DNA from: Clostridia bacterium
Lineage (GTDB): Bacteria > Bacillota > Clostridia > Oscillospirales > CAG-272
NCBI GenBank assembly: GCA_017441005.1
Contig: JAFSAM010000044.1
Coordinates: forward strand, 31,049-95,048
DNA: 64,000 bases
Direction of reading: 5' to 3'
Below the pieces are notes generated by a model, which was not told the DNA's origin, made no database searches, and was given only the letters and a program-made list of their open reading frames with translations. Shown here piece after piece: positions 46,053 through 55,454 of the stretch; the stretch's first letter is position 1; the number at the start of each line of letters is the position of its first letter. Both the position numbers and the translations under genes were made by a program.

Positions 46053-48221
46053 TTAACACCAAAATTCAAACAAACGTTCAAACGAGAGGAATGCATCCTG
46101 TAAATATCCCGATTTGCTGAGATAATCATAGATCAGAGCAGAATTTATGAGAATAGCAGATGCTGCCGAATAAACGAAAAATGCAGTGATAAATGTTTTT
46201 GCAAAGCCGTTTTCTGACAGCTTATATTTTTCGTAAAGGAAGAAAATGATAATCATTCCTCCGAGTATGAACTGCCACGAAAAGTCAGCGGCGTATCTTA
46301 CTCCGTAACCGCTTTCCCATATTGAGAAAATGATGACAAGGGGGCAAAGGATGCATACGGAAAGAAGGAGGAGCGAGGGGATAAGTCTTTTCTTTTTGTC
46401 TGCTTTTTTATATGCAAGAGGAGCGAGGAAGAGACCGAGCGAGGGGATTGCTCTGTAGAACAGACCGATGGCATTTCTGTTTGCGATAAAGTAGTATCCG
46501 TTCGTGTTGAGCGAAGAAAAATTCGAGAAAATAAACGGGAATTCCGGCTTAACGTAGGGGGCGGCAAACAGGTAGTTCCAAAAACCGATAAACACAAAAT
46601 CTGTGTGATATTCCGCCCTTGTGAAGTCGTTTATGGTAAGTGAATACTGTATACCGAAATCGAAGAAATTGCCGAATCTCACGTAGTTGTAGATCATTTG
46701 TATTCCACCGATCAAGACGAATGGAATGAGTGCTGCTGAAAGAAAGGCTGTGATCGACTTTGCTTTATTCAGATTTTTTGAAATTGCCGTCGACTTCGTT
46801 TTAAATAGTCCGACCGCTATAAAGAGCAGGGCAGCAACGCAATACACTGCAAGCGTCGGACGGCAAAGAACCGCCAAGGCAAGACAGGTCGAAGACAAGC
46901 AAATGTGCCGCTTGTATATCTTGCCTTCGGAAATAACGTTGGATTTTATGAGGAAATAGAAGCCCATGCAGGTAAACGCAAAGCCGGAGCTCTGGGCGAT
47001 CTCATAAAAGAGCGGAGATGCAAAGCAGTAGTAGACAGCACTCGAAAACTGAATGACCAAGAGGGAAGATACAGCTACGCTGAGAGGCAAACGGGGGAAG
47101 AATTTTTTGATAAATTCATAGAACAAAAGCGAAAGAAAGGCAATTCCGATCATACCGAATATCATAACGGCTTCGGGGGTGGAAAAATAGTATCCGGTGA
47201 GAAGGTTAAAAGGTAAAAACAGGAGCAAAACCGGTGCTATACCGTAATATGAATAGTATTTTCCATCAAAAAGGAGGTGATCCCACTTGTAGCTCAAGCC
47301 TTCTGCTATTCTTGCGCCCCAATCATAGGGGTTGTCCATTTCGAGCAGGTTTTGCGGCGGGGTATCAAGGAGTGTGACCCGGCCGTTTTTGAAGGCATCG
47401 ACAAGCTCTTGGCTTATCTGATTACCGCTCGTTTGGGCAAGGCTGTTGAACAGAATTCCGCTTTTATTGTAATTGTACAGAACTGTAATGAATACTGCAA
47501 AGGCAAGCATTATTCCCGTTATAACAAATGTTGAGTAGGCGAAAGCTCCCGATTGTTCTTCGACTGTTGATTGCATGGTTTTGGTATTCAACAGCAGATA
47601 CATCATAAAGACCAGTGAGAATATCAGAATTGCTCTGAAAGCGGAAATGTCGAGAGGAACGTGGGAGTTAGCCGTGATTCCGTTGACCGAAAAATAACAG
47701 CCCTCGTCAGCTGACAAAGTAACGCGAAGATCGCTTACCTTACCCGACATATTAAGGATAACGGTTTTGGTTTTTTCGTCATTTCTTATGATTACACCGT
47801 CAGCCGTACCGTATCTGTAATCGGCAGAATAGGTCTCGTCTTTTGCATCGATTTTTACGTTTACAAGGTTTGTTTTCTTTGTTCTTATTTCGAAATCTTC
47901 AAGATATGCCGAGTCGTGAAGAGTGCAATCAATATAAAGTGTGCCGATTCTTTGATCAACGTTTTTAAAGCTGATCGTGGTTTTGTTTATAAAATTTAAC
48001 GACTCTGTAGAATACTGCGCATTTGCAAGAGAGAGTGATTTTTCTTCGTAGTTGCCAAAGCACAGATGATATGAGTGATAGTTAAAAATGAAAACTTCCG
48101 CAAAAACACAAACAGACAGTAATATAACACCGAACTTTTTTGTTTTTTTGCTTAACGGGATGAGCATGATTCCGAGTCCCACGAGTAATATTACCAAAAA
48201 ATTTATCAGAGCATTTCCCAT
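46053..48221 (-). CDS. Large polytopic membrane protein, GT-C-like glycosyltransferase candidate (PMT/ArnT-like)
   Basis: Track ORF runs to 48224 (GTG). ATG 48221 lies 7 nt after GGAGGA. About 722 aa: 2 N-terminal TMs, a roughly 130-aa extracytoplasmic beta-like insert, then at least 10 TMs. The loop motif DNPYDWGARIAEGLSYKWDHLLFDGKYYSYYGIAPVL is reminiscent of first-loop acidic motifs of GT-C enzymes. The assignment is tentative. Confidence 0.45.
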   Translation of the reverse strand: MGNALINFLVILLVGLGIMLIPLSKKTKKFGVILLSVCVFAEVFIFNYHSYHLCFGNYEEKSLSLANAQYSTESLNFINKTTISFKNVDQRIGTLYIDCTLHDSAYLEDFEIRTKKTNLVNVKIDAKDETYSADYRYGTADGVIIRNDEKTKTVILNMSGKVSDLRVTLSADEGCYFSVNGITANSHVPLDISAFRAILIFSLVFMMYLLLNTKTMQSTVEEQSGAFAYSTFVITGIMLAFAVFITVLYNYNKSGILFNSLAQTSGNQISQELVDAFKNGRVTLLDTPPQNLLEMDNPYDWGARIAEGLSYKWDHLLFDGKYYSYYGIAPVLLLFLPFNLLTGYYFSTPEAVMIFGMIGIAFLSLLFYEFIKKFFPRLPLSVAVSSLLVIQFSSAVYYCFASPLFYEIAQSSGFAFTCMGFYFLIKSNVISEGKIYKRHICLSSTCLALAVLCRPTLAVYCVAALLFIAVGLFKTKSTAISKNLNKAKSITAFLSAALIPFVLIGGIQMIYNYVRFGNFFDFGIQYSLTINDFTRAEYHTDFVFIGFWNYLFAAPYVKPEFPFIFSNFSSLNTNGYYFIANRNAIGLFYRAIPSLGLFLAPLAYKKADKKKRLIPSLLLLSVCILCPLVIIFSIWESGYGVRYAADFSWQFILGGMIIIFFLYEKYKLSENGFAKTFITAFFVYSAASAILINSALIYDYLSKSGYLQDAFLSFERLFEFWC

Positions 48222-48258
48222 CACAGGTCCTCCGTTTAATCAATATACTTGGAAAAAT

Positions 48259-48287
48259 ATTATACCATACAATGAGTAAAAAAACAA
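48259..48287 (-). promoter_or_regulatory. Promoter of the GT-C-like gene
   Basis: Minus-strand reading is TTGTTT (48287..48282), 17 nt, TGg-TATAAT (extended -10; -10 at 48264..48259). Confidence 0.55.
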
Positions 48288-48313
48288 CCGATGCCCCTAA
48301 AAAACATCGGCTG
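48278..48313 (-). terminator. Terminator after the ATP-grasp gene
   Basis: Minus sense: CAGCCGATG-TTTTTTAGGGG-CATCGGTTG followed by TTTTTTT. Confidence 0.65.
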
Positions 48314-48321
48314 ATTGTCTG

Positions 48322-49554
48322 TTATTTCTTTTTGAAATAATACTTTTTGAAGTTTTTGTATTGTCCGAAGTAGTAGCGCTTGATCTTAAGCCAGCGTTTG
48401 AGGTTAAAATCCTCTTTGCAGTCAAGCGTGCGCATATATTTTTTTTGCTTGATGAGCGATTTGATTTCTTTTTTCAATTCTTCGTCTTCAACGTACTTGA
48501 ACACAACGCATTTTGGTACGTTTGCCCAAAGGGCAATGTTTTCGTTGAAAACACAGGAATATTCTTTTCCGTAAACCGCATCGTCGACAAGTGTTTGCAT
48601 AAGATTAAGTCCCGCACTTCTGACAAAGAATGAGCTTCTTCCGGGACGGGGATTTATCTCCATCATATAGTATTTTTTTCTTGTCCGGTCATACTTCATA
48701 TCGATGTTTGAAAAGCCGATATAACCGATATCTTCAAGAAATTTCTTGATTTTATTATAGAGCTCGATGTCTCCTCTCGAAACGATCGCGGCATAATTGC
48801 CGAGTGTTTTGGGGTGGTATTCCTCAAGTGCCGGCTGACCGAGACACATAAGCCTTACCTTTGCATTTGAGTCGGAATAAGAGTTCATAACGCGCATGTC
48901 GGAGTCGTCACCGGGGATGAATTCCTGAATGATAAGCTTGCCGTTATAGCCGGAATTATTCATATTCTCCATCGTTTTGACGTAGGTTTCTTTGTCGTAG
49001 AAGAAAAATACCTTCTTTTTGCCCTCGAATTCGCAGTGCAAATATTCGTATGCATTGGAGTTTTCGGGTTTAACGACGATCGGGAATCCGAACGGAAGCT
49101 TATCTATGGCAGCGATCCTGTCGTCAGGGAGAGCTATGTAGGTATGCGGATAATCCATTCCGTGCTTTTCACACAGAGCGTAGAACTTGTCTTTTGTGTC
49201 AAGCGTGTCAAGCAGCTCGGGAGAGATAAACTTGTTTTCGATCAATCCCTCAAATTTATCGTAATGCCTTGACATAAGCGCGCTGTAATAGTCGGAGCAG
49301 GGGATTACTATAAGTTTATCATATTTTGCCTTGTATTCCTTCAAAACTGCAAGTAACGCCGATGGAAATACGGAATCCTTGTCGAAATCTTCTATCTTTT
49401 TTATTGTGAAAAGACTGCTGTTTGACGTAGGAACAAGCTGACGTGTGCAGCAAAGGAGGGGCTTGATCTTATAGACTTCGTTAAAAAGTCTTGCTTGACC
49501 GTATGCATTTTCATCGCTTCCGAGGACGATCGGAAGAAAAGTTGTATTTGTCAT
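48322..49554 (-). CDS. ATP-grasp carboxylate-amine ligase (COG3919-like; candidate stem-peptide or cross-bridge amino-acid ligase)
   Basis: 410 aa. MTNTTFLPIVLGSDENAYGQARLFNEVY (N-terminal pre-ATP-grasp), FPIVVKPENS, IIQEFIPGDDS, MMEINPRPGRSSFF (ATP-grasp Mg/ATP motifs). Confidence 0.75.
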   Translation of the reverse strand: MTNTTFLPIVLGSDENAYGQARLFNEVYKIKPLLCCTRQLVPTSNSSLFTIKKIEDFDKDSVFPSALLAVLKEYKAKYDKLIVIPCSDYYSALMSRHYDKFEGLIENKFISPELLDTLDTKDKFYALCEKHGMDYPHTYIALPDDRIAAIDKLPFGFPIVVKPENSNAYEYLHCEFEGKKKVFFFYDKETYVKTMENMNNSGYNGKLIIQEFIPGDDSDMRVMNSYSDSNAKVRLMCLGQPALEEYHPKTLGNYAAIVSRGDIELYNKIKKFLEDIGYIGFSNIDMKYDRTRKKYYMMEINPRPGRSSFFVRSAGLNLMQTLVDDAVYGKEYSCVFNENIALWANVPKCVVFKYVEDEELKKEIKSLIKQKKYMRTLDCKEDFNLKRWLKIKRYYFGQYKNFKKYYFKKK

Positions 49555-49569
49555 TATGTCAACCTCGTT

Positions 49570-51423
49570 TTATCTTAAAACAAAATACTGCTCATACCAG
49601 AGAAGGAATGAATAGACTGTGTAGATCGCTCTTGCGTTATTGGCTTTTCCTTCAAGATGATCGTTGAGCATCTGATTGAGAATGTCGACGTTAAAGAATT
49701 CCTTGGCATAATCCGCACTGAATTGCTTTTTGACTTTGTCGCCGTATTTTGCATCGCGTATCCATACTCTGAAGGGAACCATAAAGCCCGCCTTCTTTCT
49801 GTTTGCCCATTCGGTGGGAATGTGAGACAAAGCAGCTTTTCTAAAGGCTCTTTTAGTGTGTCTGCCCTTCATCTTTTGTTTTGATGTTAGCGTTTTTGCG
49901 ACGTTCCAGACCTCTCTGTCAAGGTAGGGGACACGTGCTTCAAGAGAGTGAGCCATTGTCATCTTATCGGCTTTGAGCAGAATATCGTAGGGAAGCCAGA
50001 GATGCATATCAAGATACATTTTCTTTGTGAGGTCGTCACATCTCTTTACCTTCTCGTAATAGGGGGCTGTAACGTCCTTATAGGAGAGACTGCTCTTGTA
50101 TCTGTCATTTGTTATTTTGTCGGCTTGTTCGTCGTTCATGATAAACGCCTGGCCGATGTATGTGTCTTCCACTCTTTTTGCGTTTGTTGTAAAGAATGTT
50201 CTGATGTGTCTCTGAGGAAATTTGCCGAAGAGCTTTGCCAGACCTTTGCGGAAGGAAAGGGGAAGCTTTTGATAGATTTTTGAGGGCGTGCTTTGAATGT
50301 ACCAGTCATAGCCGCCGAACAGCTCATCGGCACCCTCGCCCGAAAGAACGACCTTTACGTCTTCTGCGGCAAGCGATGAGAGATAGTAAAGAGGAACAGC
50401 GGAAAGATTTGCATGAGGCTCGTCGGAATGATACTGAACATAGGGGAGGGCATCGAAAAATTCGTCGGGAGTGATTTCTTTGATCTTATTCGGTATATTT
50501 AGTATCTTGCAGAGATCTGCTGCAAGATTAGTCTCGTCAAAGCCTTCAATTTGGAATCCTACGGAATAGGTCTTCATAGGCTTGATCCTGCCTTTTCTGA
50601 CGGTTGACGCAACGTAGCTCGAGTCAACGCCGCCCGAAAGGAATGAGCCTACCTCGACGTCTGCGATCTGGTGGTATTCAACCGAGGAAAGCACTGTTTC
50701 ATCAATCAGTTTTACTGCATTATCAAAGGAGCGCTTCTCGGGAGAAAACTCGGCTTCAAAATATTTTGTTTCGGTGAATTCTCCGTTTTTGTAGGTAAAA
50801 TAGCAACCCGGCGTAAGCTTAAACACGTTTTTGAAAATACACTCTTTCGTGGGGGTATACTGGAATTCCAGATACATCTTCAAGGCATCGGGATTTACCT
50901 CTTTTTTAAAGTGGGGGTGGGGAAGAAAGGATTTGATTTCGGATCCGAAAATAAGTGTTCCGTCAAATACACCGTAATAGAAGGGTTTGATTCCGAAATA
51001 GTCTCTTGCACCGTAAAGCGTATGCTCCTGCTTATCGTAGATGACAAATGCGAACATACCGCGAAGCATAGATGCAGTCTTTTCGCCGTAGACTGTATAT
51101 GTATTCAAGATGACCTCGGTGTCGGAGTTTGTTGAGAATACGCAGCCGTTTTCATCGATAAGTTTTTGGCGTATTTCTCTGTAATTGTATATTTCGCCGT
51201 TAAAAACTATCACGTATCTGCCGTCAGCCGAATGAATAGGCTGGTCACCGCCCTTGAGGTCGATGATGCTGAGCCTTCTGAAGCCGAGGGCAACAAAATC
51301 ATCAACAAAGCTTCCGGCGCTGTCGGGACCGCGATGGATGATAGTATCACTCATTTTTTCTATGAGCTCATTTCTGTTTATTAATTCAGTATTATTTGAG
51401 AAAAAACCGGTAAAACCGCACAT
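49570..51423 (-). CDS. asnB: Asparagine synthase (glutamine-hydrolysing) family amidotransferase
   Basis: 617 aa. N-terminal MCGFTGF (Ntn Cys2) and the PP-loop SFLSGGVDSS. Confidence 0.9.
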   Translation of the reverse strand: MCGFTGFFSNNTELINRNELIEKMSDTIIHRGPDSAGSFVDDFVALGFRRLSIIDLKGGDQPIHSADGRYVIVFNGEIYNYREIRQKLIDENGCVFSTNSDTEVILNTYTVYGEKTASMLRGMFAFVIYDKQEHTLYGARDYFGIKPFYYGVFDGTLIFGSEIKSFLPHPHFKKEVNPDALKMYLEFQYTPTKECIFKNVFKLTPGCYFTYKNGEFTETKYFEAEFSPEKRSFDNAVKLIDETVLSSVEYHQIADVEVGSFLSGGVDSSYVASTVRKGRIKPMKTYSVGFQIEGFDETNLAADLCKILNIPNKIKEITPDEFFDALPYVQYHSDEPHANLSAVPLYYLSSLAAEDVKVVLSGEGADELFGGYDWYIQSTPSKIYQKLPLSFRKGLAKLFGKFPQRHIRTFFTTNAKRVEDTYIGQAFIMNDEQADKITNDRYKSSLSYKDVTAPYYEKVKRCDDLTKKMYLDMHLWLPYDILLKADKMTMAHSLEARVPYLDREVWNVAKTLTSKQKMKGRHTKRAFRKAALSHIPTEWANRKKAGFMVPFRVWIRDAKYGDKVKKQFSADYAKEFFNVDILNQMLNDHLEGKANNARAIYTVYSFLLWYEQYFVLR

Positions 51424-51449
51424 AGTTTTATGTGTCCTTTCGAGTTTGA

Positions 51450-52973
51450 TCAGTGTATTTTTGTAGCCTTTTCGGCAAGTTCGTCATATTCTTTCAGTAT
51501 GTCGATCGATAGCTGTGCATCGGTCGGGCAGTCTTCGTAAACAAGACCTCGTTTTAGTCTTGTCTCCTCTCCTTTACCCGTGAAAAGAATAACCTTTTTT
51601 TCAGCCTTGAAGCCGAAAACGGCATCCTTGATGGCTTGTCCGCGGTCTTCGATCATGGAATATGGGCATTCTTTTATGTTTGATGCAATGTCGGAAGCAA
51701 TGTCGGAAAAAGGCTCTTCGCCCGAATCCTCTTCGGTGATTACGATGTAATCGGAATGAGCATCAGCCTCCTCGGCAAGATCTTTTCTGCGGAGGTGAGC
51801 CTTGCATCCCGGACAGCCGAATACAGATACGACACTGTATCCGGGGTACTCGATACCAACCGTGTTGTAAAGTGCATTGAAACTCATTTTATTGTGTGCA
51901 TAGTCAACGATTATGGCGATGTTCTTGTCTTTGCTGGTATAGACCTGCATTCTTCCGCTTACCCTTGCGTTAGAAAGCCCCTCGGAAATGTATTTTTCGT
52001 CGATCCCGAGAATGTGGCAGACGGCAATGGCGGCAAGCGCATTGGAAACGTTGAAGATTCCGGGCATCGTGATACACATTTCTTTTTCAAACTTGGGTGT
52101 CTTTACGTTGAAATAAAATCCGTTGCCCCTTTTTTCTATCGAACTGCAGTATATTGTATCGTCGGGACTTGTGCCGTAGGTGATTATGTTGCACTTGCCT
52201 CTGGCAGAATCAATTATTCTGTCGGAATAGTCCGAGTCGGAATTGATGACAGCGTTTTTGCATGAATTAAATATTTTTAACTTGGAAGAGAAATAGTCTT
52301 CAAAATCGCTGTGTTCGATCGGGCTTATATGGTCAGTCCCGATGTTGGTGAAAAGGGCGATGTCGAAGCATACTCCGGCAACCCTGTCGTATTTAAGTGC
52401 TTGGCTTGATATTTCGCTTACAAGGTGTGTGATACCGCTTTTGTATGCATTGTCGAAGTGCCTGTAGAACTCGACCGCCTCGGGCGTGGTTATGTGAGAT
52501 TCGAAGTCGTTTACTCCGTCATAGGTATCAATGGAAGAGATAACTGCAATACGCGGTTTGTTCATTGCTTTCATATATCGATCGAGAATTGCACGCAGAT
52601 AGTAGGTAACAGTGCTTTTTCCTTTGGTTCCCGTGATTCCGATCGACACGAGTTTTTCGGGGGCATTGTCAAAAAACAACCGTGCAAGGATCGGCATAGC
52701 TTTTCTGATATCAGAGACAAGTATGCCCTCGGGTCTGCCGTAATCTTTTTCGCTGACATAGCAAATTGCACCTCCGGAAACAGCAAAATCAAGATAGGTT
52801 TCCTTGAAATGCGCGCCTTTGCATATAAAAATTGCGTCGGAAGAAAGCTCTCTCGTGTCATAGGTCAAGCACTTTGCCTCTTTGCAAAGAGTTTCCTTTG
52901 AAAGACTGTGCGAGATAAGCAGCTTTTCTTTTTGCAAAGCACTTAAGTAATCGCCCACAATAGGGTGTTTCAT
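51450..52973 (-). CDS. Mur ligase family protein, MurE-like, with a non-canonical substrate-selectivity motif
   Basis: 507 aa. The MurE-type N-terminal domain (LTYDTRELSSDAIFICKGAHFKETYLDFAVSGGAICYVSE), the P-loop GITGTKGKST, NIGTDHISPIEH and VDYAHN are present. Where MurE has DNPR/DDPx, this protein reads ITEEDSGEEP. Confidence 0.75.
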   Translation of the reverse strand: MKHPIVGDYLSALQKEKLLISHSLSKETLCKEAKCLTYDTRELSSDAIFICKGAHFKETYLDFAVSGGAICYVSEKDYGRPEGILVSDIRKAMPILARLFFDNAPEKLVSIGITGTKGKSTVTYYLRAILDRYMKAMNKPRIAVISSIDTYDGVNDFESHITTPEAVEFYRHFDNAYKSGITHLVSEISSQALKYDRVAGVCFDIALFTNIGTDHISPIEHSDFEDYFSSKLKIFNSCKNAVINSDSDYSDRIIDSARGKCNIITYGTSPDDTIYCSSIEKRGNGFYFNVKTPKFEKEMCITMPGIFNVSNALAAIAVCHILGIDEKYISEGLSNARVSGRMQVYTSKDKNIAIIVDYAHNKMSFNALYNTVGIEYPGYSVVSVFGCPGCKAHLRRKDLAEEADAHSDYIVITEEDSGEEPFSDIASDIASNIKECPYSMIEDRGQAIKDAVFGFKAEKKVILFTGKGEETRLKRGLVYEDCPTDAQLSIDILKEYDELAEKATKIH

Positions 52974-53013: not shown

Positions 53014-53658
53014 TTATGCCTCGCCGTTTTTGCGGAGAAGTGCGATTGCGGAGGCTACGTCCTCTTTGCCGAAAACCGCAGAGCCGGCAACGATGACGTT
53101 TGCGCCCGCTTTAACAACCTCGTTTATGTTGTCGGCGTTGATTCCGCCGTCGACCTCGATGTCAAGCTCGGGCAGGAGTGCTCTCGATTCTCTGATCTTG
53201 TCAAGAGATTCCGGGATAAAGGACTGACCGCCGAATCCGGGCTCGACAGACATAATAAGAAGCATATCGAACATACCGATAAAGGGCTTCAGTGCAGTAA
53301 CGGGAGTTTTGGGCTTGATCGAAAGACCAGCTTTGATTCCGTATGATCTGATTTTCTCCAATGTTTCAGCAACGTTGTCGCAGCTTTCGAGGTGTATTGT
53401 GATTATATCAGAGCCTGCTTTTGCAAAATCGTCGACATATCGAATGGGGTCGATTATCATAAGGTGGGTGTCAAACACCATTTTGCTCTGCTTGCGGATG
53501 GACTTTTGGATGGGTGCACCGAGAGAAATGTTGGGTACAAAAACACCGTCCATAACGTCGATATGTAAGTATTCTGCGCCGCCCTTTTCGGCTCTGTCAA
53601 CGTCGAATCCGAGCTTTGAAAAGTCTGCGGAAAGAATTGAGGGTGAAATTTTTATCAT
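53014..53658 (-). CDS. rpe: Ribulose-phosphate 3-epimerase
   Basis: Track ORF is 53014..53712. ATG 53658 follows GGAGGAAACCTACC. Sequence: MIKISPSILSADFSKLGFDVDRAEKGGAEYLHIDVMDGVFVPNISLG...MSVEPGFGGQ. Confidence 0.93.
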   Translation of the reverse strand: MIKISPSILSADFSKLGFDVDRAEKGGAEYLHIDVMDGVFVPNISLGAPIQKSIRKQSKMVFDTHLMIIDPIRYVDDFAKAGSDIITIHLESCDNVAETLEKIRSYGIKAGLSIKPKTPVTALKPFIGMFDMLLIMSVEPGFGGQSFIPESLDKIRESRALLPELDIEVDGGINADNINEVVKAGANVIVAGSAVFGKEDVASAIALLRKNGEA

Positions 53659-53931
53659 GGTAGGTTTCCTCCAAAAAAACTGTGTGTGATTTATAAAAAA
53701 ATATGTTTGCAAAGATGATCAAAAAAAAGCAACCGTTCGGCACAAATGGCAGATGTGACAAATGTAATAAAATGCCATAAAATAGTATCAGATATGCAAA
53801 ACGGAATCTCCTTCGAAACAAGGATGTGGCGAAGGCCGAAATAACAAGGATCGTGTGCTGAAAAATACTTCGGGGAGGCCGTTATTATATAGATATCTAT
53901 ACTGCGCGAAAAAGCATATAAATTGGCAGTA

Positions 53932-53984: not shown

Positions 53985-54461
53985 TTAGCATTTTACAATA
54001 AGGCATACCGCGTGTGCGGCGATGCCTTTTTTTTCGCCGGTAAAACCGAGATTTTCTTCTGTGGTCGCTTTGACGTTTACTGCCGACATTTCGACAGAAT
54101 AGGCTTTTGCAATATTTTTTTGCATTTGCTCGATATATGGGCGCACCTTCGGGGCCTGCATTATCAACGTTGCATCGATGTTGGATATCTTGTAGCCGTT
54201 ATCTTTCAGAAGTTCCGCTGTTTTGGCGGCGAGGATGAAGCTGTCAATGTTTTTGTATTTGCCGTCGGTATCGGGAAAGTGAAGGCCAATGTCGCCGAGC
54301 CCCAAAGCACCGATGACAGCATCCATAATTGCATGGATGAGCACGTCGGCGTCGGAGTGGCCGTCAAGCCCCTTATCGTATGGAATATCAACACCGCCGA
54401 GAATGAGCTTCCTGCCTTCGACCAATCTGTGTACGTCGTATCCGTGTCCGATTCTGATCAT
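53985..54461 (-). CDS. ispF: 2-C-methyl-D-erythritol 2,4-cyclodiphosphate synthase
   Basis: 158 aa. [64 protein letters not shown]. Confidence 0.96.
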
Positions 54462-55246
54462 TTATTTTCCTCCTCGGCAGATTGTCTTGATTTCAAGATT
54501 GCATCTGCAATTATAAGGTCTTCCTTTGTGGTGATCTTGAGGTTGTTTCGTCCGCAGTCGACAAGCTTAATTTTAAAGCCGTAGTTTTCGACCAGCATAC
54601 AGTCGTCGGTAGCAACAAGTCCCTCTTTTTTAGCCGAGAAAGCACAGGCTCTGTATACCGAGGCTCTGAATACCTGCGGTGTTTGTGCGCTCCAGGCAAA
54701 ATTCCTGTCGGGGGTTGACTGAATAAACATATTTGAGTCAGCCATTTTTAGCGTATCGTATATCTTTGATGCGGCGCAGGCACAACCGTCTGTGTAGGCG
54801 GCTTTTACAACGTCTTTTATGTTTTCTCCGGTGATCAGACATCTGACTCCGTCGTGAATTGCTACGTAATCTGCTTCCTCTGAGACTGCTTTGAAGCCGT
54901 TGAGAACCGACTCCTGTCGAGTCTCTCCGCCTTCTACGATCTTTGTGACCTTTGTTAAGCCGTATTTGTTTATTATTTTCGTGTATAGCTCGATCTCGTC
55001 GGACTTTGCGACAATGACTATTTCATCTATATACGGGGAGGATTGGAATTCGATGACAGTTCTTGCGACTATAGGCATACCGTCAAGAAGCATAAATTGT
55101 TTTGTTGTGCCGTCTGCACTCTGCATACGGGTGCCGCTTCCTCCGACGGTAATTATTGCTGATGTCATAGGCTTGGAAAACTTGAGTGTAAGCTTATCAA
55201 GCATACCCGAAACAGCTTTTGCGGTTTTTTGGAAAAAATTGCTCAT
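54458..55246 (-). CDS. ispD: 2-C-methyl-D-erythritol 4-phosphate cytidylyltransferase
   Basis: Track ORF runs to 55432, an implausible hydrophobic AT-rich extension. ATG 55246 ([10 protein letters not shown]...) lies 9 nt after GGAG. The IspD core begins at [34 protein letters not shown] (alternative start 55168, no SD). ATGA overlap with ispF. Confidence 0.88.
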
Positions 55247-55426
55247 CGTATTAACTCCGTTATCATTAATGATGCATATCGGCATAATTATAATTATTAT
55301 AGCACAAATGGAATGTAAAAATCTACATATTTTGAAAAATTTATTAAAAAAATGGTTAGATGCTCTAAAAAAAAGAAATGAGCGAAGAATTATTAAAAAA
55401 AGAGGGAGGAAAATGAAAAAAACTAT

Positions 55427-55454
55427 TTGCAAAACGGATAATATATGTTATAAT
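55427..55454 (+). promoter_or_regulatory. Promoter of the cdaA operon
   Basis: TTGCAA (55427..55432), 16 nt, TGt-TATAAT (extended -10; -10 at 55449..55454). Confidence 0.55.

Follow-up and report, generated by a model that had tools for sequence, protein, structure and literature searches.

In Lactococcus lactis, the roles of the ligase AslA, the racemase RacD (aslA–racD operon), and the amidotransferase AsnH in the synthesis and amidation of the D-aspartate (D-Asp) cross-bridge have been described, and this amidation lowers the sensitivity of the cells to lysozyme and cationic peptides (PMC4155827). In Lactobacillus plantarum, the gene of another AsnB-family amidotransferase, asnB1, is co-localized with murE, and its product acts on cytoplasmic precursors (PMC4155827); MurE adds meso-diaminopimelic acid (mDAP) there, and the mDAP itself is amidated. 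Here, we analyzed a 64,000-nucleotide stretch of DNA (hereafter the window) from an uncultured gut member of the Clostridia (GTDB lineage Oscillospirales, CAG-272; GenBank assembly GCA_017441005.1, contig JAFSAM010000044.1, positions 31,049 to 95,048), whose genome is 2.1 Mb in size and 94% complete. Three adjacent genes on the minus strand encode a second MurE, an AsnB-type amidotransferase, and an ATP-grasp ligase of the Asl (D-aspartate ligase) family. The initial annotation, made from the DNA letters alone, had taken them for a candidate operon tailoring the peptidoglycan stem peptide or its side chain, and this is supported by the lineage of the MurE, the placement of the ligase in the Asl family, the identity of the AsnB, and the linkage of the genes in relatives. 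We consider it likely that the operon makes UDP-MurNAc-peptides that carry L-Lys or L-Orn as their third residue and, on it, an amidated side chain of D-Asx (or D-Glx), alongside the mDAP route. As in the Aslfm–Racfm system of Enterococcus faecium and the AslA–RacD plus AsnH system of L. lactis, the same two enzyme families would act after MurE. Unlike those systems, the window operon includes a MurE, its host also has a canonical mDAP-type MurE, and neither the operon nor the rest of the host genome was found to encode an aspartate racemase. The enzymes themselves are new members of known families. The combination of a Lys/Orn-type MurE, an Asl-type ligase, and an AsnH-type amidotransferase, lacking a racemase, accompanied by an mDAP-type MurE in the host and by fused forms in relatives, is an architecture not described in the literature searched, in which no relevant description of a second murE or an Asl homologue in Clostridia was found either.

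The MurE of the operon (51450..52973, minus strand; 507 amino acids) contains the Pfam domains Mur_ligase_M and Mur_ligase_C. It passes the MurE model TIGR01085 narrowly (272 bits against a cut-off of 257.3, with model positions 3–453 of 472 covered), and its best-scoring model is that of the L-Lys ligase, NF010628 (322.5 bits). The protein retains the P-loop, the nucleotide-sugar motifs DTR and TTP of its N-terminal part, DH, the lysine at the KxKxF position, and DYAH. This lysine occupies the position of the carbamylated Lys in MurE ligases, as located from the sequence. Across 84 members of the family, conservation is seen at GITGTKGKST, HITTPEA, NIGTDHIS, SSKLKIF, and VDYAHNK. In place of GxGGxRDxxKR, DNPR, and GKGHE of the mDAP type, the protein has GCPGCKAHLRRKD, EEDSGEEP, and GKGEE, and these replacements are likewise conserved across the 84 members; DNPR and GxGGxRDxxKR, by which an mDAP-adding MurE is recognized, are thus both missing. 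The host's canonical MurE has SDNCR and GCGGDRDRSKR. In the sole MurEs of Enterococcus saccharolyticus and Vagococcus luciliae, the corresponding motifs are GSAGDKALSRRPD, SDDPGFED, and GKGTE, and GTKGK, NIxxDHIS, DYAHN, G.xG.KA..RR.D, T.(D/E)D(P/S)G.E, and GKG.E (with no His) are common to these proteins and the operon MurE. Because the unusual motifs of the operon MurE match those of the two sole MurEs, they are the signature of a Lactobacillales-type enzyme. On these motifs, the operon MurE is a Lactobacillales-type Lys/Orn enzyme, predicted to add a diamino acid that has no distal carboxylate. It shares the replacing motif set with the L-Lys MurE of the Lactobacillales (NF010628/PRK14022 type) but carries EEDSGEEP instead of SDDPGxED. 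The label "MurE-like" given at first is corrected accordingly, as the protein is not an odd relative of MurE.

The amino acid identities follow the motifs: 36–38% to the sole MurEs of E. saccharolyticus and V. luciliae, 28–32% to the MurEs of Lysinibacillus, Sporosarcina, and Psychrobacillus, and 28% to the host's canonical MurE. The gene for the latter (440 bits), with murF directly after it, lies on another contig of the host genome, and the operon MurE is not the sole MurE of the host. In two other genomes, however, the only MurE belongs to the operon-MurE lineage; in one of them the gene is situated in a dcw cluster with the order PBP-MurE-MurF-MraY, and the second carries it as an ArgB fusion. 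Since the lineage supplies the sole MurE of two genomes, one of them within a dcw cluster, its members are genuine MurEs. Two other identities were tried for the protein and rejected. For a MurT/GatD-like system, DUF1727 is absent, the partner is a class II AsnB, and the MurT entries of the Protein Data Bank (PDB) match only at an E-value of ~5e-4. For a cyanophycin synthetase-like protein, TIGR02068 gives 91 bits, with its cut-off at 850, and matches only the C-terminal part of the MurE.

The ATP-grasp ligase (48322..49554, minus strand; 410 amino acids) gives a weak but full-length ATP-grasp match and weak hits to RimK, ATP-grasp_3, and CPSase_L_D2. A sequence search of the PDB returned nothing at E ≤ 1, and hence no structural homologue is named. 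A profile search returned more than 500 representative clusters at E ≤ 1e-30. Among 401 sampled genomes of Bacilli, 45 had strong full-length matches (at least 315 bits), which were named by exact protein look-up. The carriers comprise a first group (Ureibacillus, Lysinibacillus, Metasolibacillus, Sporosarcina, and Metalysinibacillus), a second (E. saccharolyticus and Vagococcus), a third (Psychrobacillus, Planococcus, Planomicrobium, and Chryseomicrobium), and, separately, Macrococcus. We take most of these genera to have Lys/Orn walls, bridged by D-Asp in the first two groups and by D-Glu in the third, and Macrococcus to be Gly/Ser-bridged instead. In the carrier genera presumed to be D-Asp-bridged, an aspartate racemase gene follows the ligase gene. 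Enterococcus, Vagococcus, and Metalysinibacillus have the three genes arranged as AsnB-ligase-racemase, in agreement with the aslA–racD operon and the AsnH step of L. lactis (PMC4155827). The window ligase is 41–44% identical to the racemase-linked ligases of Caryophanaceae (Ureibacillus, Lysinibacillus, and Sporosarcina), 38% and 35% identical to the racemase-adjacent ligases of E. saccharolyticus and Vagococcus, respectively, and 34–36% identical to those of the racemase-less group (Planococcus and Psychrobacillus). In the maximum-likelihood tree, the window clade, which holds all three window-type Clostridial contexts and Paenibacillus, is monophyletic (100/100) and sits on a long stem inside the radiation of racemase-linked Asl ligases. 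By this placement, the window protein is a member of the Asl family of side-chain ligases; the reference points are the E. saccharolyticus and Vagococcus orthologues and the gene context.

The AsnB-family glutamine-dependent amidotransferase (49570..51423, minus strand; 617 amino acids) scores 512 bits with TIGR01536 and has both the Cys2 nucleophile (MCGF) and the SGGVDS PP-loop. The model scores led us to reject a role in the synthesis of N-acetylglutaminylglutamine amide. The protein is 47% identical to the AsnB of the AsnB-ligase-racemase operon of E. saccharolyticus, 42–47% identical to the AsnBs encoded directly upstream of Asl ligases in Enterococcus, Vagococcus, and Metalysinibacillus as a whole, and 48–49% identical to those of the AsnB-ligase-racemase-MurE (loci L151 and L152) and AsnB-ligase-MurE (L153) cassettes of the same family. 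These comparisons, in which the Enterococcus and Vagococcus orthologues served as reference, make it AsnH-like. It is improbable, in our judgment, that this AsnB amidates the mDAP of the canonical pathway, as do L. plantarum AsnB1, Bacillus subtilis AsnB, and Corynebacterium glutamicum LtsA, and that it lies beside a MurE gene in the manner of murE–asnB1 without being the partner of the ATP-grasp ligase. The host does have an mDAP-type MurE and only this one AsnB, the L. plantarum precedent is real, and many genomes have the MurE–ATP-grasp core without an AsnB. The neighboring MurE, however, lacks the mDAP motif and is of Lys/Orn type, and Lys or Orn offers no free carboxylate to amidate; unlike the L. 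plantarum locus, the operon also has a side-chain ligase. The AsnB moreover adjoins an Asl-type ligase in the window (15 bp upstream of it), in Enterococcus, Vagococcus, and Metalysinibacillus, and in sister Clostridia, at 42–49% identity.

The AsnB might also be a mere housekeeping asparagine synthetase whose position has no functional meaning, given that it passes the generic asparagine synthase model and that no AsnA was found in the host genome. We regard this as the least probable of the explanations considered. The gene order is repeated across orders and also in Bacilli, and AsnRS was not found in the host genome, in which GatB is present. Asn-tRNA is thus probably formed by transamidation, and the AsnB would be dispensable for translation.

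In total, 85 related loci were mapped. MurE and the ATP-grasp ligase are adjacent or fused in 48 of these and one gene apart in a further 12, and many of the remaining loci are truncated by contig ends; the neighbors thus remain linked in other genomes, and their order is not due to chance. The three-enzyme unit proposed at the outset must be qualified in this respect: the MurE–ATP-grasp core is conserved, but the AsnB is an accessory found in only some lineages. Six arrangements were distinguished. The first, ispF-rpe-MurE-AsnB-ligase, is that of the window's clade, and a genome of the same genus has it likewise, cut by a contig end. The second is MurE-AsnB-ligase-arginase, with a rocF-like arginase (175 bits). 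In the third, MurE and the ligase are adjacent, as in the unfused pair of Oscillibacter valericigenes, or fused. The fusions (899–1050 amino acids) were found in 16 loci, L028–L042 and L044, including that of Hominicoprocola fusiformis (L031:2841-5672). The fourth consists of a ligase of a different clade, an aspartate racemase, and a MurE::ArgB fusion, and the fifth is the MurE within a dcw cluster. The sixth, AsnB-ligase-racemase-MurE, occurs in the same GTDB family and contains a third MurE lineage, with TSDNP[D/G/N], also without the Arg. Since the same four or five functions are repeatedly reshuffled and fused, the enzymes are likely to share one pathway, and we argue that MurE, the ligase, and their partner enzymes act together.

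Some details of these cassettes may be added. The domain order of the MurE::ATP-grasp fusions is the reverse of that of cyanophycin synthetase. In L062:6980-9349 and about 25 other loci (within L058–L091), the MurE is fused at its C terminus to a complete acetylglutamate kinase (ArgB; TIGR00761, 238 bits). An Asl-type ligase and an aspartate racemase are often encoded ahead of this fusion, and the L062 genome has no other MurE. The four-gene AsnB-ligase-racemase-MurE cassettes of the same family lie at L151:3387-8569 and L152:3047-8325.

Here, we propose a second cytoplasmic route to peptidoglycan precursors that would operate beside the canonical mDAP route, and we infer its substrates and the order of its steps as follows. 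In the first step, the MurE paralogue would join L-Lys or L-Orn, which have no distal carboxylate, to UDP-MurNAc-L-Ala-D-Glu. In the second step, the Asl-family ligase would activate an acidic amino acid, most likely D-Asp and possibly D-Glu, as an acyl phosphate and attach it to the side-chain amine of residue 3. In the third step, the AsnB-type enzyme, using glutamine, would amidate the carboxylate left free on the newly attached amino acid, in the manner of AsnH in Lactococcus. Together, these steps would yield a bridged stem peptide of A4 type (Lys/Orn-D-Asx). As to residue 3, the sister-clade fusions to ArgB and the linkage to arginase, which set the window MurE apart from the L-Lys MurE of the Lactobacillales, point to ornithine rather than lysine as a candidate; no arginase was found in the host genome.

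Several observations weigh against this proposal. The NF010628 score of the operon MurE (322.5 bits) is below the curated cut-off for L-Lys ligases (536), a difference from the Lactobacillales equivalogs, and the E. saccharolyticus MurE is also below it (482 bits, with 471 of its 516 codons in the scanned region). In contrast to Aslfm and AslA, the window ligase stands in a clade of its own on a long branch, along which its specificity may have changed, and D-Asp is not assured as its substrate. The absence of an aspartate racemase from the window, remarked on in the initial annotation, extends to the genome, where MurI was the sole gene of the Asp/Glu racemase family found. Among 11 relatives with the same type of ATP-grasp ligase, six have an unlinked aspartate racemase and in five none was found. 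O. valericigenes, which has the MurE–ligase pair, reportedly contains mDAP. Lastly, Paenibacillus has ligase orthologues (63% identity) beside AMP-binding and CotH genes and no MurE of the operon lineage. As for the supply of D-Asp in the host, the only candidate source found was a Dat-like class IV aminotransferase (216 bits, below the cut-off), which could provide it; alternatively, D-Glu or some further residue may take the place of D-Asp in the window clade.

The Paenibacillus arrangement, in which the ligase is encoded away from MurE, also bears on a different kind of product, such as a cyanophycin-like or other amino acid polymer, a wall-linked peptide, or a small peptide metabolite. Cyanophycin synthetase joins ATP-grasp and Mur-ligase modules, the operon MurE matches it weakly, and the arginase linkage could suit an Arg-containing polymer. 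The score with the cyanophycin model, however, is far under its cut-off, the operon MurE aligns over its full length with true MurEs, including the N-terminal DTR and TTP motifs, and the same lineage provides the only MurE of some genomes. Furthermore, the ATP-grasp family tracks the genera that we presume to have walls with Lys/Orn-D-Asp or D-Glu bridges. A product other than peptidoglycan therefore seems to us very unlikely, and a bridged stem peptide is the product that we favor. In the Paenibacillus loci themselves (L007:8001-13197 and L097:6001-10679), the ligase gene is followed by that of an AMP-binding enzyme and then by that of a CotH-family protein. A gerA operon adjoins the ligase gene in L007, and a germination-receptor gene lies ~5 kb away in L097. 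The Paenibacillus carriers have several MurE paralogues, with three MurE-like genes in P. montanisoli.

Possession of two MurEs is common among the relatives of the host. In the window's GTDB family, 69 of the 121 sampled genomes have an Asl-family ligase, and 93 have at least two MurE matches. In each of the 11 other genomes of the family with a window-type ligase, the contig that bears this ligase also encodes a Lys-type MurE; a canonical MurE is present in 10 of these genomes as well. The window's host encodes SpoIVA (691 bits) and is thus an endospore former. Of 16 genomes tested for this protein, 13 of the 14 with dual MurEs have it, and neither genome with a Lys-type MurE only (G002, the genome of L075, and G005, that of L062) yielded a match; this sample is small and its members are related, and the pattern is a lead rather than a result. 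Lysinibacillus (Bacillus) sphaericus reportedly has a Lys-D-Asp vegetative wall and an mDAP spore cortex, as is said to have been found by Tipper and Linnett in the 1970s, and the SpoIVA pattern fits this precedent. Like L. sphaericus, the window's host forms spores and has two murE genes together with a ligase of Asl type, and Lysinibacillus louembei and Sporosarcina pasteurii have two MurE matches each. As for the timing of the route, which we infer by this analogy, the two chemistries may be divided, one being used for vegetative growth and the other for the cortex of the spore. In the host, the mDAP-type murE is the one that precedes murF. A broader reading, which we put forward tentatively and at less than even odds, is that many spore-forming gut Oscillospirales have two peptidoglycan chemistries from two MurEs, one of mDAP type and the other of Lys/Orn type with an Asl ligase (at times fused to the ligase or to ArgB), perhaps divided between vegetative wall and cortex, with the window clade maybe adding a residue other than D-Asp.

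The operon predicts a second, bridged peptidoglycan chemistry in these bacteria, and together with its relatives it provides a testable genomic predictor. Whether muropeptides are of mDAP or Lys/Orn type bears on their sensing by host NOD1 versus NOD2, and also on the sensitivity of the cells to lysozyme and cationic peptides and on the choice of endolysins. If two chemistries do coexist, abundant gut commensals would show non-mDAP muropeptides during growth. The MurE::ATP-grasp and MurE::ArgB fusions are natural evidence of coupled steps and convenient targets for enzymology. A review of the gut peptidoglycome published in 2024 gives the chemotypes of Ruminococcus, Ruminiclostridium, and Oscillibacter as not yet determined (PMC11382707).

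The physical organization of the operon agrees with the initial annotation. The open reading frames (ORFs) were confirmed, as were the gaps of 26 bp between the MurE and AsnB genes and 15 bp between the AsnB and ATP-grasp genes and the intrinsic terminator that closes the operon (48275..48313, minus strand; 13-pair stem, 3-nt loop, T7 run). The upstream neighbor is rpe, encoding ribulose-phosphate 3-epimerase (53014..53712, minus strand; TIGR01163, 265 bits), at a distance of 40 bp from the MurE gene with no terminator predicted inside the gap. It has the same position in all 10 close relatives whose locus is long enough to show it, and the order ispF-rpe-MurE is retained in L012–L019, L026, L048, and L156. 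Given this conserved position, the short gap, and the lack of a predicted terminator, the transcription unit may begin at rpe, which would then be co-transcribed. The nearest relatives of the host genome are metagenome-assembled genomes labeled Eubacteriales, Oscillospiraceae, or Ruminococcaceae. Directly past the terminator, a 723-amino acid protein (46053-48224, minus strand) is encoded, for which no Pfam or NCBIfam match was found. A homologue with 50% identity is located 3′ of the ligase gene in L026, whereas L017 has an FGGY kinase there instead, and its link to the operon is therefore inconstant. The longest ORF of ispD (54458-55432, minus strand) has 324 codons and places ~90 residues before the IspD domain (residues 92–314); its true start is probably further downstream.

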